Under the pieces are notes generated by a model. The model made no database searches, was not told the DNA's origin, and saw only the letters and a program-made list of their open reading frames with translations. A DNA stretch of 64,000 nucleotides, taken from an uncultured Alphaproteobacteria bacterium (GTDB taxonomy: Bacteria > Pseudomonadota > Alphaproteobacteria > RF32 > CAG-239). Of the stretch, positions 6,274 through 45,198 are shown in pieces. How positions within the stretch are numbered: position 1 is the stretch's first letter; each line of letters opens with the position of its first letter. The translations under genes and the position numbers were made by a program. The stretch lies in the NCBI GenBank assembly GCA_944392295.1, contig CALXWE010000008.1, forward strand, positions 12,474-76,473, in the 5' to 3' direction.

Positions 6274-6331
6274 GGATTATCATTGAAAATTATAAATGTT
6301 TCTGGTAGTGTATTTCCAAAGGAGATGTGGT

Positions 6332-6904
6332 ATGAAAAAAATTTGTTTGTTTTTATTATTCCTACTAATAACATCTTGCTCGACTATTGATACTTTAGAG
6401 GAAATAGGTGTTGACAATAAAAGATGTATTGGAATTCGTAGATTTAAAGTCCTACAGGCGGTATATCATAATACGGGATTAGCTTTTGAATGTTTTACTC
6501 CTGACTGTAGTGATGCCTATAGAAATAACCTAGATTTTATTTTAGGGGACAAAGTAAGTGAAGATTTATATGATGGTATGATTTACGAAGTTCCTACAGA
6601 TAAATGTGCTGTTAGGGACGGTGTGTTTAAATACGAAACTAAAGATGGGTTACAGAAAACAGTTTCCAAAATTGTTTTTGAGTACAAAAATGATTATCAA
6701 TCAGAAGAAGAACATCAAAAAAGAATTTATAAAGCAAAAGAAGATATAGCTTCAATATGTATTAATAGGTACGAAGATGAAAATTTACCAAAAGATGAAA
6801 AATATTGTACTTGTTACGCAAACAGTTATGTAAATAATAGTGGTGATGCTCAATCAATCAAAAAAGAATGTGGCAAGTTGCCCGATTTTTTACCACATAA
6901 TTAA
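6332..6904 (+). CDS. hypothetical cysteine-rich lipoprotein
   Basis: MKKICLFLLFLLITSC lipobox with LITSC cleavage cysteine. Multiple cysteines downstream. No recognisable family. Confidence 0.5.
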   Translation: MKKICLFLLFLLITSCSTIDTLEEIGVDNKRCIGIRRFKVLQAVYHNTGLAFECFTPDCSDAYRNNLDFILGDKVSEDLYDGMIYEVPTDKCAVRDGVFKYETKDGLQKTVSKIVFEYKNDYQSEEEHQKRIYKAKEDIASICINRYEDENLPKDEKYCTCYANSYVNNSGDAQSIKKECGKLPDFLPHN

Positions 6905-6918
6905 ATTGTTTAAGGGAA

Positions 6919-7425
6919 ATGACGAGTATGGATAAATGGGAAAAATTTTGGAAAAGTGATGAAAATAAAAATTCATTGCCGGATGATTTTTTTAAAAAAA
7001 ATGATGAAAAATACGATTACACTGAAGAAAAGTATGAATATACGAAATCCTTAACTGAAAATGCTATCCAGAGAAACTGGATAACCCCTACACAGTTTTT
7101 GTGTTGTCCTCAAAAAATTAGTAATACACCGTTAAATGATTACCTGAATAATTTACAGATTGATAAAATCTTTTCTAATAATCAATACGGACAATCAAAA
7201 ATAGTTAAGTTTGGAATGTCTAAAGATAAAAAAACAATAGTAGTACAAACCTATACAGAAGGTGGTGTAAAAAATCTATATATTGCTAAAATAACCTTTG
7301 AAAATAATTTGTTTGTGCATACAAATGGTGGTAGTTATTTTTCGGATGAAGGTGCAGAAAAGTATTATACCTTAGCTTTAGGGGAAGAATGGACTGGAGG
7401 AGAGGTTTTAGACGACTATTGCTAA
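6919..7425 (+). CDS. hypothetical protein (no signal peptide)
   Basis: 168 aa ORF with RBS-like GGGAAATGACGAG context. Lies adjacent to the tRNA-Gly locus. No recognisable motifs. Confidence 0.4.
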   Translation: MTSMDKWEKFWKSDENKNSLPDDFFKKNDEKYDYTEEKYEYTKSLTENAIQRNWITPTQFLCCPQKISNTPLNDYLNNLQIDKIFSNNQYGQSKIVKFGMSKDKKTIVVQTYTEGGVKNLYIAKITFENNLFVHTNGGSYFSDEGAEKYYTLALGEEWTGGEVLDDYC

Positions 7426-7426
7426 T

Positions 7427-7462
7427 AAAAAAGACCATTTTCTATGGTCTTTTTTATTGGAG
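7427..7462 (+). terminator. rho-independent terminator hairpin (AAAAGACCATTTTCTATGGTCTTTTTT)
   Basis: Perfect GACCAT/ATGGTC stem followed by a T-run directly after the stop at 7425. A near-identical copy occurs at 7608..7637 next to the tRNA. Confidence 0.55.
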
Positions 7463-7490
7463 CTGGTAAGGGGAACGCTAAGTAAAAACA
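7427..7490. repeat. partial duplicate of the tRNA-Gly 3' end plus its adjacent hairpin
   Basis: aaaagaccattttctatggtcttttttattggagcTggtaaGgggaaCGC at 7427..7476 matches aaaagaccatttttcatggtcttttttattggagcGggtaaCgggaaTCGaacc at 7608..7660. About 36 bp are near-identical, with about 15 bp of degenerate extension into the tRNA acceptor/T arm. Confidence 0.55.
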
Positions 7491-7638
7491 ACCGCTGCTC
7501 CGGTTGTTTTTATCTGCAAGTTCTTTGTAACATCTTAACGAGCCAGGGAAGTATAGAACGACCGCAGCGAGTTTAGATGCCAAAGAGGTATTCCCGTCCG
7601 CAATCAAAAAAAAGACCATTTTTCATGGTCTTTTTTAT

Positions 7639-7712
7639 TGGAGCGGGTAACGGGAATCGAACCCGCATTAAAAGCTTGGGAAGCTCTCATTCTACCATTG
7701 AATTATACCCGC
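7639..7712 (-). tRNA. tRNA-Gly (anticodon CCC)
   Basis: Reverse complement folds as GCGGGTA / TACCCGC acceptor stem, ATTC/GAAT D-stem, AGAGC-TTCCCAA-GCTTT anticodon arm (CCC), GCGGG-TTCGATT-CCCGT T-arm, discriminator U and encoded CCA. Total 74 nt. Confidence 0.85.
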
Positions 7713-10667: not shown

Positions 10668-11184
10668 TTTTATAAAAATACATTGGTTTGGACTTATTTT
10701 ATCGGTTGTAGCCGTATTTTACACGGCTGTCTTTGTAATGGTATTTTTATCGCCGCGTCAAGATGAGCTCAAAAGGGGATTTATACCTTGTACCGAAATT
10801 TTGGTACAAGATATGTTTGATTGTAACGGTAAGGCGTGGTGTATGAGCAAAGCCATTGTTAAAAACACCGGCTGTGATACCAAAATCGTTTTGGAAGGTT
10901 TGGGTAATTGGGTTAAAGGCAAACAGTCAACACCATGGGCTAATTATTTGTTTGAGCCACGCATAGATAAAGAAAATAATCAAGACGAGAAACATCCCGA
11001 ACTTGAAGAATTTTACAGAGATAATCGCGATATAAAAGCCGATATGGAAAAGTTAAACAGACAGTGGCAGGAGCTTGAAAAATCATTGCCTAATGATAAA
11101 ATAACTGAAGTTCCCGTCAAAGAACAAGCTGTAAAGGAAAATAAGGAGGAAGTAAAAGATGAGCAAACAGCAAGTAAAGAATAA
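10660..11184 (+). CDS. hypothetical membrane-anchored protein with acidic/lysine-rich C-terminus
   Basis: One N-terminal TM helix (FGLILSVVAVFYTAVFVMVF), four cysteines, coupled start overlapping the glmU stop. Confidence 0.4.
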   Translation: MLNFIKIHWFGLILSVVAVFYTAVFVMVFLSPRQDELKRGFIPCTEILVQDMFDCNGKAWCMSKAIVKNTGCDTKIVLEGLGNWVKGKQSTPWANYLFEPRIDKENNQDEKHPELEEFYRDNRDIKADMEKLNRQWQELEKSLPNDKITEVPVKEQAVKENKEEVKDEQTASKE

Positions 11185-12955
11185 TCTTCCGGCATGGGAT
11201 TTATCGGATTTATATAAAGGCATTGATGATCCTAATATTAACAAAGACTTAGAAACTTATCGTAAAACTACCTTAAGCTTTGCCAAGAAGTATAAAGGTA
11301 AGTTGGGCTCACTAAGTCCTGATGAAGCTTTAAAAATGTTTAAAGTTAAAGAAAAACTGGCAATTTTGGGAGGACGCTTGGGAGGCTTTGCTTATCTTAA
11401 TATGTCAACGCAAATGAAAAACTCCGAAGCCATGCGGTTTTATCAAAATATATCTGAAAAATTGACTGATTATGCCAAGCCAATGGTATTTTTCAGCCTA
11501 GAGTTTAATGCTCTGCCGGAAGCCAAAATCAAAGAATGGCTCAAAGATAAAAAGGTAGCTTTTTACAAACCGTACATTAAACGGATTCGTAAGTATAAAA
11601 AATACGAATTAAGTGAGCCTGTTGAAGAAATTTTGCTTGAAAAATCCATCACCTCATCGGAAGCTTGGGTTCGGTTGTATGAAGAAATTTCATCTCGGTT
11701 AGAGTATCATGTTGACGGCAAAACTTATAACGATGCCGAAATTAGCAAACTTACCTTAGATGCCGATCCTAAAGTTCGTCATGCCGCCGGAGCGGAAATC
11801 AATCGAGTTTATAAGCAAAACTCTCCTTTGTTTACTTTGGTTTATAATATGATTATAAAAGACAAAGCCATAGAAGATGAGAAGAGGGGCTTTGCCAAAC
11901 CTGTTTCGGCTCGTAATTTGGCCGAAGATGTACCGGATAAAGTTGTTGATGCCTTGGCTCAAACCGTAAAAGCCAATTACAAAAATTTGGCACATCGTTT
12001 TTATAAATTAAAAGCTAAATGGTTAGGTGTTAAAAAAATCAGTTATTGGGACCGAAATGCACCGCTGCCGTTTTCATCAGATATTCATTATGAATGGAAT
12101 GATGCGGTTAAAACGGTATTAAACGGTTATTACAATTTTTCGCCCAAACTCGGCAAAATTGCCCAAGACTTTTTTGACCATCCGTGGATAGACGTACCGC
12201 CCCGCGACGGTAAAAGAAGCGGAGCTTATTGCAGTGGACCTTTGGCAACCAAGCATCCGTATTTGTTTTTAAATTTTGTGGGCAAGCAAAACGATGTTTT
12301 GACTTTAGCTCATGAATTAGGTCATGGCTGTCACCATCAACTTCGTACCAAAAACGGAGAGTTAAACGAAACCTCGCGTATGACTACCGAAGAAGTTGCT
12401 TCCGTATTTGGCGAGATGTTGGTTTTTCAAGATATGCTCAAGAACTTGGATGATGATAAAGATAAATTATGCTTAATTGCTTCCAAGGTTGGCGATATGT
12501 TAAATACGGCAGTTCGTCAGATTGCCTTTCACTTTTTTGAAACTCGAGCCCATGAGGAACGTAAATCTGGAGAACTTTCCGAGGAAAGATTAGCCGATAT
12601 CTGGCAAGAAGAAATGGGTGAAAGCTTGGGCGAATATGTAGAAATGGGAGATGATACGCGCTATATATGGTCTATGGTCGGACACTTTTTCTTTTTACCG
12701 TTTTACGTGTATGCTTATTCCTTTGCGGATTGCTTGGTAAATTCACTTTATCAGGTAAAGATGGAAGGAAATGTTGAAAACTTTGCCGATAAGTATTTAA
12801 AACTGCTGTCGCAAACGGCTATCGGTGAATATGAAGACATTTTAAGACCGTTCAATTTAAATCCGAACAACCCGGATTTTTGGCAGAAGGGATTAAACTT
12901 AATTTCATCATATATAGATGAATTGGAACGACTTGATAAAAAGCTTAAGCTGTAA
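11159..12955 (+). CDS. pepF: M3-family oligoendopeptidase F
   Basis: HELGHGCHH zinc-binding HEXXH motif in the right position. About 600 aa, matching PepF size. Confidence 0.8.
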   Translation: MSKQQVKNNLPAWDLSDLYKGIDDPNINKDLETYRKTTLSFAKKYKGKLGSLSPDEALKMFKVKEKLAILGGRLGGFAYLNMSTQMKNSEAMRFYQNISEKLTDYAKPMVFFSLEFNALPEAKIKEWLKDKKVAFYKPYIKRIRKYKKYELSEPVEEILLEKSITSSEAWVRLYEEISSRLEYHVDGKTYNDAEISKLTLDADPKVRHAAGAEINRVYKQNSPLFTLVYNMIIKDKAIEDEKRGFAKPVSARNLAEDVPDKVVDALAQTVKANYKNLAHRFYKLKAKWLGVKKISYWDRNAPLPFSSDIHYEWNDAVKTVLNGYYNFSPKLGKIAQDFFDHPWIDVPPRDGKRSGAYCSGPLATKHPYLFLNFVGKQNDVLTLAHELGHGCHHQLRTKNGELNETSRMTTEEVASVFGEMLVFQDMLKNLDDDKDKLCLIASKVGDMLNTAVRQIAFHFFETRAHEERKSGELSEERLADIWQEEMGESLGEYVEMGDDTRYIWSMVGHFFFLPFYVYAYSFADCLVNSLYQVKMEGNVENFADKYLKLLSQTAIGEYEDILRPFNLNPNNPDFWQKGLNLISSYIDELERLDKKLKL

Positions 12956-12974
12956 AACAAACACCCCGATAAAA

Positions 12975-13005
12975 AACACCCCCGAAAGTTAATTTCGGGG
13001 GTGTT
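12975..13005 (+). terminator. 31 bp palindromic hairpin (AACACCCCCGAAAGTTAATTTCGGGGGTGTT) acting as pepF terminator; member of a dispersed hairpin repeat
   Basis: Perfect 11 bp stem followed by AAAATTTTT. A near-identical copy lies at 14434..14464. Confidence 0.6.
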
Positions 13006-13084
13006 AAAATTTTTAAGCTAATCTTAAAAAAAAGAAAGGAGAGTGTTAAAAAACACTCTCCTTATCTTTATCATCGCTACCAAA

Positions 13085-14233
13085 CTACCAACGATGTTCG
13101 TCAGTAGTATTCTTGAGGTAGTCAACAAAAGCGTTGATGTTGTCTCCGCCTTTGTATTTTCCACCCAAGAAGGTCTGGTAATTCTCCAAATCAGCCCTGA
13201 GCTCACGCTCATAGCTTTCTTTGGAGAAAGCCCCCCTGGCGTGGAGATCGCTGAGGATGAGTTCCAAGACGGCGTCCTTGTGGGATACGCCATAGAGCAT
13301 TTCTGCTCCGTTAGGCCAGCCCATATTGTTGAACTTACGGATAAGCTGAACAAATGTGGACCAGTCGGCATCCTCAACCCCCGGCATCAGGTACCGCTCA
13401 GGATTTTGAGAGGTTGTTTTCCCCTCAAAAGTTACGGTATCCTTTTTGAGTGGCCAGATGGCTGCTGCAACATATCCGAGCATTATTTCGGACAGGCGCC
13501 CGTCAACGACCTCAAGGTCGTCAATAATCGGGCAGTGTGCCAGTACGAAGTTCATCTTCGCATCGGCATACCGGACGTCTTTTGCCTTTAGCAGGAATTC
13601 TGCCAAAACGCGTTTGTCATAAAACGCATTGCCGGAGCAGAGCACAAATGTCACCTCTTTACCTGCCTCTTTAGCGAACTGGTAAAGCTCGTCAAAGTTA
13701 CCGGCGGTATCGGTATCCTGGCACACACGCTCGTTGGCGCGAACGTAACTTCTTGGAGCAAGTTGCTCCAGAAGATTGATGTATGTCTTGTACTCGGCCT
13801 GATACATGATACCAGGCTGATTAAAGACTTCTTCATAGAGGCCTTTATTTCCGCCTAAACCAATAGGCAGAACCGGCAGCAGATCATCTGTCTGCTTGGC
13901 GTAAAATCGCACCATTTCCATGGTACAAAGATGCGCTGTCATAATCCCTGAGAAGCATACGGCAACCGGGTTGACCATATTTTTTGGCAGGTTATACAAG
14001 TCGCATACGCGAGCCTCTGACATTGTCCCTTGAGCGTTGGTGTATTTATACACTTCTCCGGGACGACATCCGCCGACACGTTCAGCCTCTTTAAGAACCT
14101 TTGCCCAATATTCAGGCTCCAGCTCTCGCGGTGCTAAAGCTCCCACGGTCTCATACACCTGACGTCTGCCGTCTGCATTGCAGCGGTAACCATTCTTTTC
14201 CAAAATTGCGATGATTTCTTTGCTTTTGTTCAT
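13085..14233 (-). CDS. hypothetical protein, anomalously GC-rich (likely horizontally acquired)
   Basis: 382 aa intact ORF. Local GC is about 48% against a mid-30s % background, and codon usage is visibly different (CTG, GGC, CCG rich). Own hairpin terminator at 13037..13060. No family recognised from sequence. Confidence 0.5.
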   Translation of the reverse strand: MNKSKEIIAILEKNGYRCNADGRRQVYETVGALAPRELEPEYWAKVLKEAERVGGCRPGEVYKYTNAQGTMSEARVCDLYNLPKNMVNPVAVCFSGIMTAHLCTMEMVRFYAKQTDDLLPVLPIGLGGNKGLYEEVFNQPGIMYQAEYKTYINLLEQLAPRSYVRANERVCQDTDTAGNFDELYQFAKEAGKEVTFVLCSGNAFYDKRVLAEFLLKAKDVRYADAKMNFVLAHCPIIDDLEVVDGRLSEIMLGYVAAAIWPLKKDTVTFEGKTTSQNPERYLMPGVEDADWSTFVQLIRKFNNMGWPNGAEMLYGVSHKDAVLELILSDLHARGAFSKESYERELRADLENYQTFLGGKYKGGDNINAFVDYLKNTTDEHRW

Positions 14234-14433
14234 ACTTTTTCCGGTGTTTATAGAGGGCGTTTCCTTAAGAACTCCGGTACCTCTTATTTAAATTAATAAT
14301 ATTTCAAAATAAAATGTACCAAGGGTCTATATGAAAACACTTCACCCTAAAAAGCAAGAACTTTTTACAATATCTACCCAATAATACATTTACGGCAAAC
14401 ATTATACTGCAATTATCGTTTTTTGTCAATAAC

Positions 14434-14464
14434 AACACCCCAGAAAGTTGATTTCGGGGGTGTT
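14434..14464 (+). repeat. second copy of the 31 bp palindromic hairpin (AACACCCCAGAAAGTTGATTTCGGGGGTGTT)
   Basis: Differs from the 12975 copy at 3 of 31 positions. Same orientation. Lies immediately downstream of the stop of the 14484..14870 gene. Confidence 0.6.
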
Positions 14465-14483: not shown

Positions 14484-14870
14484 TTATTTATTATTTTCGT
14501 TGCACATTTCAGGGTAGAGCCATTCACCGTCTAAAACATTACAACCCTCTTTTACAAAATTAAATTTACAATTTTGAGTTTTGAGGTTGTAAGCTTTCTG
14601 GTTACGCAGGCAAATTGTTTTAACCATATCCTGCGTTATGCAGTTAGCGGTTTTGCAATTTTGGATAATGTCAATTTCTTCATCGGTAAGTTTAATACAG
14701 CCAAAATCTTCACCCCATTTAAAGCAGTCGGTACGACAAGTTTTTTTATCATAATCCCACACGCCGCCGTGGGAGGTACAATACTCTATTTGGTGATTAC
14801 GATACGAAACAAAAAGCACCACAAGTGCCACAACTACGAGCAATTTCCATAACACATGTATTATTTTCAT
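14484..14870 (-). CDS. small secreted cysteine-rich protein (hypothetical)
   Basis: N-terminal hydrophobic signal/anchor LLVVVALVVLFVSY. Ten cysteines within 100 aa. Confidence 0.45.
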   Translation of the reverse strand: MKIIHVLWKLLVVVALVVLFVSYRNHQIEYCTSHGGVWDYDKKTCRTDCFKWGEDFGCIKLTDEEIDIIQNCKTANCITQDMVKTICLRNQKAYNLKTQNCKFNFVKEGCNVLDGEWLYPEMCNENNK

Positions 14871-22809: not shown

Positions 22810-24732
22810 ATGCATGGACTTCACCCTTTGATAATAGATTTAACTTTAATTGCCATTTATGCGGCAATTACGACATTAATTTTTAAAAAGCTCAAACAAC
22901 CTATGGTATTAGGCTACTTATTGGCGGGTATTTTTGCCGGTCCGTATTTTAATTTTGTGCCCACGGTAACCGACAGAGCCAATTTAACTTTATGGGCAGA
23001 TATCGGGGTCATTTTTTTGTTATTCAGTTTAGGGCTGGAATTTAGTTTCAAAAAGATGATAAGCGTTGGTAAATCGGCGATGATAACGGCAACTTTAAAC
23101 ATTTTTTTGATGTTGTTTGTGGGCTATTACATCGGTCTTTTTCTTAACTGGACAGCCATAGACAGTTTCTTTTTAGGTTCCATGATTTCCATGTCGTCGA
23201 CCACCATTATCATTAAAGCGTTTGATGATTTAAATGTTAAAAAACAAAAATTTACCGACTTAGTATTCGGAGTTTTGGTAATTGAAGACATTATGGGAAT
23301 TTTATTGTTGGTATTGCTTCCGACGGTAGCTCTTGGCAGCGGCATAAACGGCGAGCAACTGGGCTTTGACGTATTAAAGCTGCTGTTATTTTTAGTAATA
23401 TGTTTTGTAACCGGCATTTACTTAATACCGACAATGCTTAAAAAGATTGACAATTTTTTAAACGATGAAATGTTGTTGGTAGTAACGATAGCCTTGTGCT
23501 TAAGTATGGTATGTCTGGCGGTATATTCCGGTTTTTCATCGGCATTAGGGGCGTTTATTATCGGCTCTATTTTATCGGAAACGGGAGCGGTAAAGCGTAT
23601 AGAGGGGGTTATTAAGCCGTTAAAAGATTTTTTCGGCGCGGTCTTTTTTGTAACGGTAGGTATGATGGTAGATCCGTCAATGTTTGTTACGTACGCATAT
23701 CCGATATTTATAATAACCTTGGTGGTATTAATGGGTAAAGTTGCCTTTTCGGTATTTGGCTTTGTGATTTCGGGGCAAAATTTAAAAACGGCGATAAGCA
23801 GTGGCTTTTCTTTAGCGCAAGTCGGCGAGTTTGCCTTTATTATTGCGGCTTTAGGTATGAGCTTGGGAGTAATTGATGGTTTTGTATATCCGATTATCGT
23901 AGCGGTATCGGTCATCACCACTTTTTTAACGCCGATTATGATAAAATCGGCAAGTCGGGTTTATAAGCTGGCAGATAAGTTACTTCCTTTGAGCTGGCAA
24001 GAATACATCAACAATAGTTCGCAATACGGGGTTACGACGGTAACCGAAGAGAAGCTGTGGAAGGCACTATTTAAGAGTTATTTTTTGCGAATGTTTTTAT
24101 TTTCGGCCATATTATATGTGATAATCGCCTTTGTTGACAGAATGGTTCGCCCTTACGCAGCGATGATTTTACCTGATATGCCCAAGCGAATATTTTTAAC
24201 GATGCTTGCGTTTGTGATGATGGCGCCGTTTTTAAAAGCGTTAACGAGTTGGAGTTTTGTTGTGCCCGATTTATTAAACAAGGTACTAATCAAAATGCAT
24301 TTAAGAAAAGCCGTAGACAGCGGTCATGACAAGTGTGAAGGAAATATGCCGATAAACAACGCCTGTGTCCCCTCATCACAAACTTTAATAAGAGAGGTAT
24401 TAAAAGGCGGCAATATTACTGATTTTTTGGCATCCAACCAACGGATTGCACGTATTTATGCCGTGTTGTGGTACGATAGACCTGCCAATCGGCTGCCGCT
24501 GCTGATATTAACCGGCATGAGACTGTTGCTGGCGGCATTTTTCATTGCGACGGCGGTTTACCAGTTTTTGACTGAAAATACCAAAGTCGTAATGATTTTG
24601 TTGGTCTTTTCCGTATGGCTGATTATGCAGTCTAAATGGCTGCTCAACCAGTATTTAAAAATCGAGAACCAGTTTTTAAGCAATTTGCACGGTGAGCCGA
24701 GCGACGATACCGATAGCCGCGACCAAGCTTAG
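22810..24732 (+). CDS. cation:proton antiporter (CPA2 / Na+/H+ exchanger family) with an extra C-terminal membrane domain
   Basis: About 12 TM helices with CPA-like profile (GLEFS, GAFIIGSILSETG). C-terminal 250 aa hydrophobic rather than a KTN domain. Confidence 0.65.
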   Translation: MHGLHPLIIDLTLIAIYAAITTLIFKKLKQPMVLGYLLAGIFAGPYFNFVPTVTDRANLTLWADIGVIFLLFSLGLEFSFKKMISVGKSAMITATLNIFLMLFVGYYIGLFLNWTAIDSFFLGSMISMSSTTIIIKAFDDLNVKKQKFTDLVFGVLVIEDIMGILLLVLLPTVALGSGINGEQLGFDVLKLLLFLVICFVTGIYLIPTMLKKIDNFLNDEMLLVVTIALCLSMVCLAVYSGFSSALGAFIIGSILSETGAVKRIEGVIKPLKDFFGAVFFVTVGMMVDPSMFVTYAYPIFIITLVVLMGKVAFSVFGFVISGQNLKTAISSGFSLAQVGEFAFIIAALGMSLGVIDGFVYPIIVAVSVITTFLTPIMIKSASRVYKLADKLLPLSWQEYINNSSQYGVTTVTEEKLWKALFKSYFLRMFLFSAILYVIIAFVDRMVRPYAAMILPDMPKRIFLTMLAFVMMAPFLKALTSWSFVVPDLLNKVLIKMHLRKAVDSGHDKCEGNMPINNACVPSSQTLIREVLKGGNITDFLASNQRIARIYAVLWYDRPANRLPLLILTGMRLLLAAFFIATAVYQFLTENTKVVMILLVFSVWLIMQSKWLLNQYLKIENQFLSNLHGEPSDDTDSRDQA

Positions 24733-25460
24733 TTCATAAACTTGGTATAAAAAGTATAGTGTATGTAGTACGAAAAGTTTTTTTCGTAGCTGTCAGGGCT
24801 TCCGCAATAGGAGTATATCTCATTTAAGCTGATGGTACGTAAACATCCGGCATAATCATGCATCGTAACATATTGGCAGTTAGAATCTCCATAAATTCTA
24901 CCCACTGAAAAATCCGAATTGGCCGTCCATATTTGCATATAAAATAACTTATCGCTATAGCCTTTGGCAATACTTAGCATATTTACGCATTGTTCATGGG
25001 TGGTAAAGACAAGTTGAAATGTGCAGTAATTAGCATCACACTGCAGTGCCATAACTTTATTATTAAATATGTCATATATCTGATTAGTTTTTTTATTGAG
25101 CATCTCATCAGGGACAATGCCGAGCTTAATTAACATATCTTTGGTCAGCTGCGACTTATCGGAAGAGGGAATGCGCGCGGCAGCCATACAAAGACCATCA
25201 AGAATAGCGGAAATCTGCTGGGTTTGCCGGTTAAGTTTGTACTTGTTCATCGCTTTAGAATATCCGGCAATAGCGCCGACGGAAAGTACGCCGATTATGG
25301 CAAGAACACCGAGCATTTCAACCATGCTTCTTCCGGAAAAAGTCGCATCTACTGGCGATTTTGCTCCTCGTGTACCTTTTGTTGTACACGTCGTTACAAA
25401 ATTGCTGCGTATCTGCAGCTTTTTTCGGAAGAATGACCGCCTCAGTTCATAAAATTTCAT
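24729..25460 (-). CDS. type IV pilin-like protein (prepilin-type class III signal peptide), paralog 1, carrying a 36 aa in-frame insertion in the leader
   Basis: GRSMVEMLGVLAIIGVLSVGAIAGYSKAM: Gly(-1), Glu(+5) and a 20 aa hydrophobic helix typical of pilin N-methylation domains. Cysteine pairs in the variable C-terminal half. Confidence 0.6.
   Translation of the reverse strand: MKFYELRRSFFRKKLQIRSNFVTTCTTKGTRGAKSPVDATFSGRSMVEMLGVLAIIGVLSVGAIAGYSKAMNKYKLNRQTQQISAILDGLCMAAARIPSSDKSQLTKDMLIKLGIVPDEMLNKKTNQIYDIFNNKVMALQCDANYCTFQLVFTTHEQCVNMLSIAKGYSDKLFYMQIWTANSDFSVGRIYGDSNCQYVTMHDYAGCLRTISLNEIYSYCGSPDSYEKNFSYYIHYTFYTKFMN
25326..25433 (-). mobile_element. 108 bp RPE-like miniature palindromic element inserted in-frame in pilin paralog 1
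   Basis: Absent from paralogs 3 and 4 at exactly this point (between ELGRS and MVEML). 15 bp terminal inverted repeats TTCTTCCGAAAAAAG / CTTTTTCCGGAAGAA. Internal CGTGTAC..GTACACG stem. Length is a multiple of 3. Confidence 0.6.
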
Positions 25461-29588: not shown

Positions 29589-30293
29589 TTATTTTTGTAG
29601 CAAAATCATTAATCTTTTAAATCCGTTTTTACAAATAGTTAAAGAATCTGATGTGTCTAATCTAGGGTAAGCTGAATTTGAATTATGAGTTCCTTTGTAT
29701 ATTGCTGTATTGCCATCGTCGGTAAGAAGGCTGGTACTGCTGATATTATCATAATAAAGTTTGGTAACGTTCATCATCTGTATGCAATAGGCAATATTAG
29801 TCTCATTAGATGCAGTAAGATTTTCGTTGATTGTAAAATACATCCTCCGCCAATCGGTTGTATCCTGTATAACTATTTGATTTTCCAAACTGTCAAAAAG
29901 CCTATCTGTGTAGCCGTCTTTCAACATATATTCCGGCACGCTGTCAAGTGTTATAAGGTATGGTATAATATTGTCCGTGTTACTGTTGCCGTTTTTTGGG
30001 GTTTTTGATTGTAGATATTCAAATGATACTGAGAGTAGATAACTTAATTCTTGAGAGCTTTTATTTAATCGATATTTTAGTATTGCCTTAGAGTAGCCGG
30101 AGAGAGCGCCGACCGATAAAACACCGATTATCGCCAATACTCCAAGCATTTCGACCATGCTTCTTCCGGAAAAAGTCGCATCTACTGGCGATTTTGCTCC
30201 TCGTGTACCTTTTGTTGTACACGTCGTTACAAAATTGCTGCGTATCTGCAGCTTTTTTCGGAAGAATGACCGCCCGAGTTCATTAAATTTCAT
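29589..30293 (-). CDS. type IV pilin-like protein, paralog 2, with the same 36 aa in-frame leader insertion
   Basis: N-terminal 70 aa nearly identical to paralog 1. Divergent C-terminal domain. Confidence 0.6.
   Translation of the reverse strand: MKFNELGRSFFRKKLQIRSNFVTTCTTKGTRGAKSPVDATFSGRSMVEMLGVLAIIGVLSVGALSGYSKAILKYRLNKSSQELSYLLSVSFEYLQSKTPKNGNSNTDNIIPYLITLDSVPEYMLKDGYTDRLFDSLENQIVIQDTTDWRRMYFTINENLTASNETNIAYCIQMMNVTKLYYDNISSTSLLTDDGNTAIYKGTHNSNSAYPRLDTSDSLTICKNGFKRLMILLQK
30159..30266 (-). mobile_element. 108 bp RPE-like palindromic element, second copy, in-frame in pilin paralog 2
   Basis: Sequence essentially identical to the 25326..25433 copy, at the same position of the gene. Confidence 0.6.
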
Positions 30294-43794: not shown

Positions 43795-43834
43795 GCCAGT
43801 GGATACTTTGAAAATGAAAAAGAAACCCACCGGC

Positions 43835-44505
43835 TTAGCCGGTGGTTCTTCTTTAACGGGTGTAACCCTAATTGTACCAGCAAACGCCTTAATGGCGTAT
43901 GACGGCCTGACAGAGCGAAGATTACTTGCTACCCGTAAACGGGTCAAAATCCATCGTTAATTGACTTTGTTCCGCGTCTTCTTTAAGTTGATTTCGAATA
44001 TACTCAGTAATTTTTTGAGTATTCTTTCCTGTTGTATCTACATAATATCCACGACACCAAAATTCTCTGTTTCTATATCGGAATTTTGCATTTCCCCACC
44101 GTTCATATATGGCTAAACTACTTTTACCTTTGAGATAGCCCATAACCGAACTTACCGAAAATTTTGGCGGTATCTCTACTAACATATGAATATGATCGGG
44201 ACAAACTTCTGCTTCTATTATGCTTATTCCTTTCCATCGGCATAATTCTCTTAATATTTGACCTATTTCTAGACGACGTCCTCCGTAAAACGCTTTTCTA
44301 CGATATTTAGGGGCGAAGACAACATGATATTTACAATTCCATGTTGTATGTGCTATTGTATGTGTGTTCATAAAAAAACTCCTTTGCTTTTGTTAGACTT
44401 TTGCCAGACCGTCTAACCTTACTTTAGCAAAGGAGTTTTTTTTGTGTAAAGCTGTAAGCTCTTTGGAACTACCGGCCTAGCCGGTAGTTTTCTTGTTACA
44501 AAAAC
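43835..44505 (-). mobile_element. IS200/IS605-family insertion sequence (about 670 bp) bounded by related subterminal hairpins
   Basis: Hairpins ACCCACCGGCTTAGCCGGTGGTT (43838..43860) and AACTACCGGCCTAGCCGGTAGTT (44478..44500) flank a complete Y1 transposase gene. Confidence 0.65.
43922..44371 (-). CDS. tnpA: IS200/IS605-family Y1 (HuH) transposase TnpA
   Basis: 149 aa. HIHMLVEIPP HuH motif and a catalytic Tyr region (RGYYVDT) characteristic of IS200 TnpA. Confidence 0.85.
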   Translation of the reverse strand: MNTHTIAHTTWNCKYHVVFAPKYRRKAFYGGRRLEIGQILRELCRWKGISIIEAEVCPDHIHMLVEIPPKFSVSSVMGYLKGKSSLAIYERWGNAKFRYRNREFWCRGYYVDTTGKNTQKITEYIRNQLKEDAEQSQLTMDFDPFTGSK

Positions 44506-44547: not shown

Positions 44548-45198
44548 TTAGAGTTCTCCGTCAGGCACCTGCCATGCCACATAAGTCGGGATTGCTCCGG
44601 ACTTTGCAATCATGGCATTGATGTTTTCTTCCGTAACCTCAAGTCCTGCGGAATTGAGGTCATACTCGGTAACACCACCGTTGATAACCAGACAGGAATC
44701 AATTCCCGCCCGATTAGCTCCCATAATGTCAGTCCTTAAGGTATCGCCTACCATAAGGGCTCTTGACTTTGGAGCCAGATTATCAAGGAGTACCCGATAG
44801 TAAATCTCCGGGTCCGGCTTACCGTAGATAATGGTTTTGCCGCCCATCTGCTGATAAGTTTCAGCAATGAGACCCTGACGAACCACGAACTTGCCTCCTT
44901 CATTAGCCCGCAAATCCGGGTTTGCACAAACGAGAGTGAGCCCGCGGTTGTAGATTGCCTTCAGCTCCGGCAGAAAATCATCAATTTCCAGACGGTCTTC
45001 GTAATTTATCTGCGGAATACCACAGTAGACGAAGTCCGCATGGTCGAGATTTTCCGTAACGGTAAAATCTGAACCCTTAAACATATCCGGAAGTTTATCA
45101 TCCGGGCGTTTAAAGTTCGCTGTACCGAAAACGTACATCCTTGTGCCGGCAATCGGGAAGTTACCGCGAAGTATGTGCTCCATGGTTTTTTTGTACAA
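44548..45198 (-). pseudogene. GC-rich fragment of a HAD-superfamily class IIA hydrolase lacking the N-terminal DxDG catalytic motif
   Basis: Conserved motif III (IIYGKPDP) and motif IV (MVGDTLRTDIMGANRAGIDS) are present, but motifs I and II are absent. Only 25 bp separate it from the upstream gene. GC is clearly above local background. Abuts IS200. Confidence 0.5.

Follow-up and report, generated by a model that had tools for sequence, protein, structure and literature searches.

A probable foreign one-gene unit at a shared, duplicated intrinsic terminator in an uncultured gut bacterium and its sister species

Integron cassettes are promoterless genes bordered by attC sites of about 57-141 nt, which are built of R''/L''-L'/R' boxes with extrahelical bases, and they are collected in an array next to intI/attI. 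Elements of the IS200/IS605 type and their non-autonomous, palindrome-associated derivatives carry both of their end hairpins and make no target duplication; as these ends move with the element, an empty site has none. Sites of the Xer/dif type measure 28 bp and consist of two 11-bp arms around a 6-bp center, resembling the dif site of the chromosome. Site-specific integration is accompanied by duplication of the att site, and its decayed cis-mobilizable remnants are known as CIMEs. The minimal mobile elements (MMEs) of Saunders and Snyder (2002), as quoted in PMC3898611, are defined by exchange solely by homologous recombination of their flanks, and a duplicated target does not belong to this definition.

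The locus described here shares single traits with some of these systems. It is situated in a 64-kb window, i.e., the whole stretch of DNA that was analyzed, and comprises a unit of ~1.42 kb between two direct repeats, consisting of one gene with its own promoter and its own terminator. The native left flank is pepF (11159..12955, + strand), encoding an oligopeptidase F of the M3 family (Pfam Peptidase_M3 and M3_N) and converging on the insert. It is followed by repeat copy 1 (12964..13005), composed of a 31-nt terminator hairpin (12975-13005) and a short A/T tail on the pepF side. The intrinsic terminator belonging to the unit itself (13036..13063, - strand) has a 12-bp stem followed by TCTTTTTTTT (dG -21.4, z -7.4) and is also kept in the sister-species locus L001. 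The gene, here called ORF382 (13085..14233, - strand), is intact and encodes 382 aa, as initially annotated; its product belongs to a small unannotated family with a predicted YdcF/DUF218-like fold. Upstream follow a 5' leader of ~160 nt (14234..14395, - strand) and a sigma-70 promoter of perfect consensus (14401..14429, - strand; TTGACA-17 nt-TATAAT, 12/12 hexamer positions), the latter being kept in every strain as well as in L001, whose -10 hexamer is TATACT. Repeat copy 2 (14423..14464; hairpin 14434-14464 plus tail) acts on the - strand as the predicted terminator for the atp operon together with orf128. The right flank, orf128 (14484..14870, - strand), is the last gene after atpC and encodes a small protein that is rich in Cys and has a hydrophobic segment at its N-terminus.

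According to our reading of the junction, the -35 hexamer spans the end of the repeat, its TTG belonging to the duplicated tail and its ACA to the insert. ORF382 is probably highly expressed. Within the insert, neither a recombinase nor terminal inverted repeats nor the remnant of an element was found. Conservation of the leader between species covers the promoter-proximal two thirds, whereas some strains have the 3' third replaced or deleted; in L023 and L026 the leader is ~44 bp shorter. An interpretation of the leader as a conserved regulatory RNA or riboswitch was rejected, considering that an Rfam search of 14234-14400 gave no match, that the fold z-score is only -2.8, that distant homologues are devoid of the leader, and that some strains have lost the 3' third. 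Rfam matches at 12936-13174 were weak, sub-threshold ones to terminator-containing sRNAs. A seemingly separate gene of 404 aa in L023 and L026 turned out to be ORF382 (95.5% identity), called from an upstream start.

Both 31-nt hairpins were found at their annotated positions and in identical orientation. The copies agree at 29/31 positions, one more than initially counted, and the two mismatches are a stem C>A exchange, by which copy 2 loses one pair as had been noted, and one change in the loop. In the strains L022 and L028 of the same species the stem of copy 2 is perfect, and identity between the copies reaches up to 30/31 in other strains of the window's species. The hairpin is composed of 13-nt arms and a 5-nt loop in the pattern AACACCCCCGAAA-N5-TTTCGGGGGTGTT. 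The repeated stretch is longer than the hairpin, comprising 34 nt in the comparison and, by our reading across species, ~39 nt including the GTT(T)ATTG tail. Using a looser pattern, only two copies were detected within the window, both at the ORF382 locus, and zero matches were obtained in window shuffles. Extension of the search to 185,579 reference genomes retrieved the hairpin pattern in 15 of them with one copy at most in each, i.e., no searched genome holds several copies, and the viral contigs searched contained none. Within the window and the genomes searched, the hairpin is a local terminator, doubled at the ORF382 locus only, and not a dispersed REP/BIME-like repeat. Equally, it is not a generic terminator occurring hundreds of times, an outcome that the initial annotation had named as speaking against an acquired cassette.

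By prediction, the hairpin is an intrinsic terminator that works in both directions and is shared by pepF and the atp operon/orf128, which converge on it. Hairpin 1 lies 20 nt past the pepF stop and hairpin 2 lies 19 nt past the orf128 stop; these positions, the folds, and the compensatory changes described below support the proposal that each hairpin terminates a flanking gene. Copy 1 scored as a terminator on both strands (dG -21.8 and -23.2 kcal/mol). On the + strand it is predicted to terminate pepF; on the - strand, where the hairpin is followed by TTTTTTAT, it would back up the terminator of the ORF382 unit. In copy 2 (dG -18.4), the - strand shows a TTGTTATT tail, and the terminator hairpins overall range from about -18 to -25 kcal/mol with T-tracts present. 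Across relatives, compensatory double changes were observed in 3/13 stem pairs with 96% of cells paired, and 4/5 loop positions vary. The combination of compensatory stem changes and a free loop indicates a structural RNA signal rather than a protein-recognition sequence. More distant relatives have unrelated terminator hairpins at the same place after pepF. In stem-loop, T-tract, position, and conservation of structure over sequence, the hairpins correspond to predicted Rho-independent terminators.

Comparison with two sister species defined an occupied and an empty state of the site. In the window's species (W, 7 contigs) and in sister species L (locus L001), ORF382 is found between two hairpins. 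In the sister species XZ, represented by 12 contigs from independent samples and uniting the X and Z types of orf128 in one species, there is a single complete hairpin, with 70 bp separating orf128 and pepF and no gene between them. The gene orf128 is present in occupied and empty species alike. When occupied and empty sites are aligned, the sequence to the left of copy 1 and that to the right of copy 2 are both found again in the empty site, the breakpoints falling exactly at the repeat. The existence of such a gene-free site with one terminator in a sister species speaks for a clean gain or loss of a gene and not for a new mobile repeat. By its atypical composition and its presence or absence with defined breakpoints, ORF382 is probably a genomic islet. 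Of the initial idea of a horizontally acquired cassette at a dispersed palindromic repeat, the foreign codon usage and the presence/absence unit hold, but the dispersed repeat has to be replaced by a local terminator.

In terms of composition, ORF382 has a GC content of 0.492 (49.2%) and a GC3 of 0.547 (54.7%, versus roughly 0.37), the highest among the 50 ORFs of the window. The initial annotation was right about the elevated GC of this ORF but had set the background too low in the mid-30s, with the window at 39.1% (0.391) and the neighboring genes at 0.36-0.44. Its distinct codon preferences were corroborated, since in an analytic test of synonymous codon usage ORF382 is the most deviant of the 50 ORFs (z = -10.5), followed by the next ORF at -6.0. 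High GC as a consequence of expression bias was rejected: between the codon deviation of ORF382 and that of rpoB, rpoC, atpA, and atpD there is no correlation (r = 0.004), and the z-score test places rpoBC and atpAD on the opposite side. In part, the raised GC3 is a property of the family, as seen in the low-GC locus L073, where the homologue has a GC3 of 0.48 against about 0.34 in its flanks, in a synteny common to L075. Altogether, codon usage points to a foreign origin of ORF382. A donor was not found, and outside W and L even the closest relatives are only 64-66% identical.

Since the split of W and L, ORF382 has been vertically inherited under purifying selection. Between these species its dS is 0.43, in comparison to 0.40 for pepF, 0.48 for atpD, and 0.47 for atpA, and its dN/dS is 0.14. 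Separate acquisitions in W and L were rejected because the dS of the gene matches that of the flanks. The initial annotation would have taken a close homologue with similar GC at the same locus in a relative as an argument against transfer; L001 holds such a homologue with the same GC, but L shares the insertion and XZ lacks the gene.

In our interpretation, ORF382 is probably a foreign one-gene unit located at a shared terminator that has been duplicated on both sides of it in the lineage of W and L. In the host, a low-GC gut bacterium, pepF and the atp operon/orf128 would have converged on a single bidirectional intrinsic terminator. In the lineage leading to W and L, about 1.42 kb of foreign DNA would then have been placed at this terminator, leaving the whole of it (31-nt hairpin plus a T-rich tail of ~8 nt) as a direct repeat on either side of the insert, so that both native neighbors may remain terminated. 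The perfect sigma-70 promoter formed at the junction would drive ORF382. The site in XZ would be undisturbed or precisely restored. For the duplication of the terminator, the most likely route would be that a circular molecule with one copy of the site integrated by a single crossover and then decayed; alternatively, a staggered break at the palindrome could have been filled in. The route is a conjecture, because the insert contains neither recombinase nor terminal inverted repeats nor element remnant. With respect to polarity, we infer gain rather than loss.

The locus was further compared with the known systems in detail. As in integron cassettes, a single gene lies between imperfect palindromes in direct orientation, and one might take the hairpins for sites at which a trans-supplied cassette system recombines (attC-like, Xer/dif, or a non-autonomous, palindrome-associated element moved by the Y1 transposase of the IS200 in this window), with ORF382 being mobile. 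The geometry of one site when empty and two direct sites around a single gene when occupied would fit, the ORF382 family is scattered over five neighborhoods, and an IS200-type Y1 transposase, an enzyme acting on DNA hairpins, is encoded 30 kb away. However, the hairpin of 31 nt is shorter than attC sites and has a perfect stem free of extrahelical bases, hence it is not an attC site; moreover, no intI/integrase, attI, or array was found at the ORF382 locus or among the ORFs scanned, and unlike an integron cassette the unit carries its own strong promoter and terminator. Compared with the general Xer/dif layout, the hairpin has 13-nt arms, a 5-nt loop, a GC-rich sequence, and a T-tail, and in these respects it would differ from a dif site. 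Unlike the empty site expected for IS200/IS605, the one in XZ retains one complete hairpin in 12/12 contigs, and the end hairpins of IS200 differ in sequence. A perfect 13-bp stem with T-tail sits exactly where a terminator is expected, with compensatory stem substitutions and a freely varying loop; other members of the ORF382 family have no flanking repeats, and there is no genome with multiple copies of the hairpin. Taken together, we consider a mobile cassette of this kind most improbable. A parallel is seen in att duplication and CIMEs, where likewise the empty state has one core copy and the occupied state has two of them in direct orientation around the insert, and where a terminator hairpin can belong to the duplicated core, as at a tRNA-Gly site of this window. 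The unit could be the last remnant of a larger element, such as a prophage or genomic island, for which the terminator served as attachment site, with ORF382 as cargo of the 'moron' type that outlasted an internal deletion. Its own promoter and terminator, the atypical composition, direct repeats of att length, a neighboring orf128 with homologues only in phage structural modules, and the classic att duplication with different cargo in a sister species seen in the same window would all agree with such a history. Unlike att integration and CIMEs, the 1.4-kb insert holds a single gene and nothing else between the repeats, no integrase or element gene is present, and the target is not a tRNA gene. 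In addition, relatives of ORF382 were not found in 2.9 million viral contigs, PHROGs, and BFVD, and orf128 lies outside the repeats and is also present in the empty species; a remnant of this type is quite unlikely.

Turning to the polarity of the event, ORF382 might alternatively be native to the genus and have been lost in XZ by slipped-strand or RecA-mediated deletion between the ~39-bp repeats, its high GC3 being a family-intrinsic constraint and not a sign of transfer. W, L, and XZ are about equidistant and their gene trees conflict, atpG joining L with XZ and pepF joining W with L, so that the pattern is explained equally well by a gain in W and L and by the precise loss, in XZ, of everything between the repeats; the atpG tree would even make the occupied state ancestral. 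A native gene would also agree with the equality of dS in ORF382 and flanks, with the raised GC3 of the L073 homologue in conserved synteny, and with the fact that deletion between direct repeats leaves exactly one copy, as observed in XZ. Yet an earlier event duplicating the terminator around the gene would still be required, which shifts the insertion back in time and does not remove it. The direction of the codon deviation is unrelated to the highly expressed genes of the genome, and the block of DUF2207, NTP transferase, orf174, and pepF is kept in 22 more distant relatives (pepF 58-77% identity), of which 22/22 lack ORF382 downstream of pepF. Moreover, within the hairpin none of the differences that distinguish copy 1 from copy 2 is common to W and L, which speaks against a duplication much older than the radiation. 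Two outgroups were discarded for determining polarity, namely the orf128 homologues, which turned out to be phage genes, and the pepF relatives with 58-77% identity, which do not share the pepF-orf128 junction. Overall, we regard a native gene lost in XZ as unlikely. Finally, the ~39-bp duplication of the terminator could be the footprint of an undescribed type of gene insertion that targets intrinsic-terminator hairpins, which appears very unlikely to us. Such an insertion might proceed through staggered cuts at both feet of a cruciform extruded from the DNA, followed by fill-in, or by a trans-acting recombinase on hairpin sites; a promoter-bearing gene would land between convergent genes, each neighbor keeping its own terminator copy, and the scattered ORF382 family would travel as single-gene units.

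The ORF382 unit also invites comparison with the MMEs of Neisseria, with which it has in common a site between conserved genes, a whole-gene cassette present in some lineages, and the absence of any encoded mobility function. Unlike MMEs, the ORF382 insert has a copy of the resident terminator, duplicated over ~39 bp, on either side, and only one cassette type besides the empty state was seen at its site.

Two other elements of the window are of note. At the tRNA-Gly site, where the sister species carries a different cargo, the att-type duplication comprises the terminator and the 3' end of the tRNA and represents a precedent within the same window for an att-type duplication that contains a terminator. 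A true IS200 is located at about 43820-44495 and has hairpins of similar sequence near both ends in the same orientation; the hairpins at 43825 and 44467, considered as a second case, were rejected as such because they are the ends of this element.

On sequence level, the initial statement that the protein has no obvious motif proved correct, as Pfam, NCBIfam, PDB sequences, PADLOC, and PHROGs all gave no match to ORF382, but it needs refinement in view of the predicted structure. The AlphaFold2 model (mean pLDDT 93.3) has E. coli YdcF (3ca8) as best Foldseek match with a probability of 0.99, a TM-score of 0.53 relative to YdcF, and 12% identity. Like YdcF, ORF382 is predicted to be cytoplasmic, with neither signal peptide nor membrane anchor; unlike YdcF, it is ~120 residues longer, with extra helical parts at the N- and C-terminus. 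Pfam DUF218 (PF02698) gave 0 matches to 49 family members even at E = 5, and the distant relatives P0115 and P0116 gave sub-threshold DUF218 matches with E = 0.009 and 0.036. ORF382 contains stretches reminiscent of DUF218 motifs (D-T-D-T-A-G-N and C-S-G-N-x-x-Y-D-K-R) that can be aligned with a distant relative showing such weak matches, and the relation is supported by an hhalign probability of 87%. A YdcF/DUF218-like alpha/beta fold is confidently predicted for ORF382. The DUF218 family includes SanA, ElyC, and YgjQ, with a Thr-His-Glu triad proposed for SanA, and binding of S-adenosylmethionine or a nucleotide is expected of DUF218/YdcF-like proteins (PMC12176290). In the ORF382 family, His232, Glu211, and Arg207 are invariant and Thr194 is nearly invariant. 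Judging by its fold similarity, ORF382 may be an enzyme acting on small molecules and binding a nucleotide or S-adenosylmethionine.

The family of ORF382 is small, consisting of about 80 clusters among 5.8 billion proteins, all of them unannotated, and its members occupy five unrelated neighborhoods. No flanking repeats were found around homologues elsewhere. A viral origin of the gene was rejected, as no relatives were detected in the 2.9 million viral contigs, PHROGs, and BFVD.

The locus provides a clean natural example of how a foreign gene may be added to a compact genome without harm to its neighbors, with a resident bidirectional terminator flanking both sides of the insert and the junction yielding a consensus promoter. 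If the duplication of the terminator should recur at other insertions, this would point to a specific integration mechanism. At the same time, ORF382 draws attention to a family that is very small, lacks annotation, and is maintained by purifying selection in gut bacteria not yet cultured. As enzymes, the DUF218 proteins are still little understood, and a cytoplasmic, DUF218-like member that is predicted to be strongly promoted and varies in presence between species may be a convenient experimental entry point to them.

The 382-aa gene at 13085..14233 (minus strand; ORF382), intact as stated in the initial annotation, lies between two hairpins, both located where they had been reported: copy 1 at 12975-13005 on the pepF side (AACACCCCCGAAAGTTAATTTCGGGGGTGTT) and copy 2 at 14434-14464 on the orf128 side (AACACCCCAGAAAGTTGATTTCGGGGGTGTT). 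The copies are identical at 29 of 31 positions, correcting the 28 originally counted; one of the two differences disrupts a stem pair in copy 2, the other concerns the loop. Shuffled versions of the window gave no hairpin match, and a looser stem pattern recovered these two copies only over the 64 kb. In minus-strand reading order, atpA, atpG, atpD, atpC, and orf128 are followed by hairpin copy 2 (19 nt past the orf128 stop), a perfect promoter (TTGACA-17-TATAAT) beginning 3 nt beyond it, a leader of ~160 nt, ORF382, its own strong terminator (13036-13063, then T8), and hairpin copy 1 (then T6), which on the other strand lies 20 nt past the stop codon of the converging pepF. The duplicated repeat is longer than the hairpin, spanning 34 nt in a repeat search of the window and up to 42 nt in BLAST of copies from different strains; comparison by eye across species gave a common unit of ~39 nt, composed of the hairpin and a GTT(T)ATTG tail. 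From the viewpoint of minus-strand transcription, this unit is the whole terminator, and the repeat end falls inside the -35 hexamer of the ORF382 promoter. Some strains of the window's species (L023, 4388-4530; L026, 1044-1186) have a leader shorter by ~44 bp with its 3' part replaced and differ around the start codon (MEKSKE vs MNKSKE); as a consequence, gene callers lengthen the ORF to 404 aa.

The corresponding empty site is found in a MAG (L017), one of 15 reference genomes matching the hairpin pattern and, with a 95% identical pepF, a close relative. Its pepF stop is followed by one hairpin and then at once by the window sequence downstream of copy 2. Contigs of the window's species (W) and of a sister species without the gene (XZ) were gathered by look-ups with orf128 variants. 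In all seven W contigs spanning the whole unit, the gene sits between two hairpins, and one contig is 100% identical to the window across 8.4 kb; each of 12 XZ contigs from independent samples has one hairpin and an orf128-pepF gap of 70 bp. In a third species (L, locus L001), synteny is kept and the site is occupied by a gene of equally high GC. Hairpin plus insert, with a period of 1459 bp, thus form a genuine presence/absence unit, occupied in W and L and empty in XZ, whose limits coincide exactly with the repeat. The adjacent orf128 (14484-14870, minus strand), placed after atpC, encodes a small protein rich in Cys, with a hydrophobic segment at the N-terminus. Its homologues make up only three clusters within 5.8 billion proteins; those that are distant (47-55% identity) have portal and capsid genes as neighbours on phage-like contigs. 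Between the two orf128 types within XZ, whose flanking genes are <2% diverged, the first ~35 residues are sharply unlike.

The hairpin has the character of the local terminator and not of a dispersed element. Its copies have folding energies of -18 to -25 kcal/mol, and six distinct versions from three species show compensatory double changes in 3 of 13 stem pairs with a loop free to vary. Just past pepF, more distant relatives have ordinary terminator hairpins of unrelated sequence. Among 185,579 reference genomes, only 15 contain the degenerate hairpin pattern, one copy apiece, and it was absent from the viral contigs searched. The initial observation is confirmed; its reading as a foreign-looking cassette bounded by hairpins stands, that as a dispersed repeat does not.

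The GC content of ORF382 (0.492) is high, as noted initially, against a window mean (0.391) that exceeds the proposed mid-30s background; its GC3 of 0.547 is the top value among 50 ORFs. No ORF of the window comes near it in atypical synonymous codon usage (z = -10.5; next -6.0); in this z-score test, rpoB, rpoC, and atpD deviate in the opposite direction. The deviation of ORF382 is uncorrelated with that of the highly expressed set (r = 0.004). ORF382 favours CTC/CTG, GAG, CAG, ATC, and GGG, highly expressed genes TTG/TTA, GAA, CAA, ATT, and GGT. The family occupies five unrelated neighbourhoods. In hosts at 47-48% GC, the homologue resembles its neighbours in composition; at locus L073, which is low in GC, its GC3 is again raised, despite synteny common to L075, so some of the excess GC may be a trait of the family itself. 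The second most atypical codons belong to a HAD-family hydrolase (44548-45183, minus strand; GC 0.486, GC3 0.51, z = -6.0). This gene directly adjoins an IS200 copy and is possibly a further acquisition; no repeat was seen flanking it. Further ORFs with atypical codons (z = -5.4, -3.8, -3.7) lie at 29589-30293 (minus strand) and 22810-25460, their 234-aa and 243-aa products having no Pfam match.

Between W and L, the dS of ORF382 (0.43) falls inside the range of its flanks (pepF 0.40, atpD 0.48, atpA 0.47), indicating that the gene was already present in their common ancestor, and purifying selection acts on it (dN/dS 0.14). No difference specific to copy 1 or copy 2 of the hairpin is common to W and L, which suggests that the terminator duplication does not predate the W/L/XZ radiation by much. 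The three species are roughly equidistant and gene trees conflict; the polarity is either a gain on a short W+L stem or a precise loss in XZ through inter-repeat recombination. Another 22 relatives (pepF 58-77% identical) keep the DUF2207-NTP transferase-orf174-pepF block and lack both the atp junction and a downstream ORF382, showing that ORF382 and pepF are not anciently linked and leaving the event unrooted.

Regarding the route of duplication, the insert lacks both a recombinase and terminal inverted repeats. The hairpins lack the features of integron attC sites and of a dispersed repeat, and IS200/IS605-type behaviour was rejected because the empty site still holds a hairpin. An empty locus with a single site and an occupied one with two in direct orientation fit single-crossover integration of a circle carrying one site copy; staggered breakage at the palindrome feet, then fill-in, would lead to the same arrangement. 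A precedent for integration within the window is tRNA-Gly(CCC) (7639-7712, minus strand), whose 3' end and downstream terminator hairpin are duplicated ~180 bp off (7422-7470 vs 7601-7660). In the sister species, the same repeat pair encloses a 254-aa ORF (L017 1392-2451); the window cargo differs, two low-GC ORFs (6296-6904 and 6919-7425, GC ~0.30, no Pfam match) lying beside the site, which resembles an integration hot spot where elements have decayed. A complete IS200-type element is located at 43818-44495, with a Y1 transposase (43922..44371, minus strand; Pfam Y1_Tnp, E = 6e-38) and two similar end hairpins 642 bp apart (..CCACCGGCTTAGCCGGTGG.. and ..CTACCGGCCTAGCCGGTAG..), distinguished by a compensatory change. 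The nearest named concept to the ORF382 unit is the neisserial minimal mobile element, which has no duplicated target, in contrast to the duplicated terminator here (PMC3898611).

ORF382 had no match in Pfam, NCBIfam, PDB sequences, PADLOC, or PHROG. Its family is tiny, comprising 79 clusters in 5.8 billion proteins, all unnamed, and 36 matches, mostly fragments, among 1.84 billion representatives. A confident AlphaFold2 model (49-sequence input; mean pLDDT 93.3, pTM 0.91) gave E. coli YdcF (3ca8) as the sole convincing PDB match (probability 0.98-0.99; runner-up 0.14). The two remotest sequence relatives, whose alignment with the profile of the family has a probability of 87%, show below-threshold DUF218 matches and form a weak sequence bridge to this fold match. 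Of the four DUF218 proteins of E. coli, YdcF is the cytoplasmic one; it binds S-adenosylmethionine, and its fold is typical of enzymes that use nucleotides; SanA and ElyC are implicated in envelope polymer synthesis, a catalytic triad being proposed for SanA (PMC12176290). We infer ORF382 to be a cytoplasmic small-molecule enzyme of the YdcF/DUF218 superfamily. The closest outside relatives (P0002-P0009, e.g., L002 8001-9347; 64-66% identity) have a C-terminal extension of ~65 residues absent from ORF382. In a distant branch (45-47% identity; L073 4365-8779, L075 4369-8856), represented by two genomes differing in GC, the homologue lies between a 515/516-aa protein without Pfam match and the TrkH potassium transporter, overlapping the trkH start in L073; this arrangement may reflect a functional link. 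The locus represents a well-documented single-gene insertion/deletion, combining an unusual whole-terminator duplication with an unannotated YdcF-like protein.
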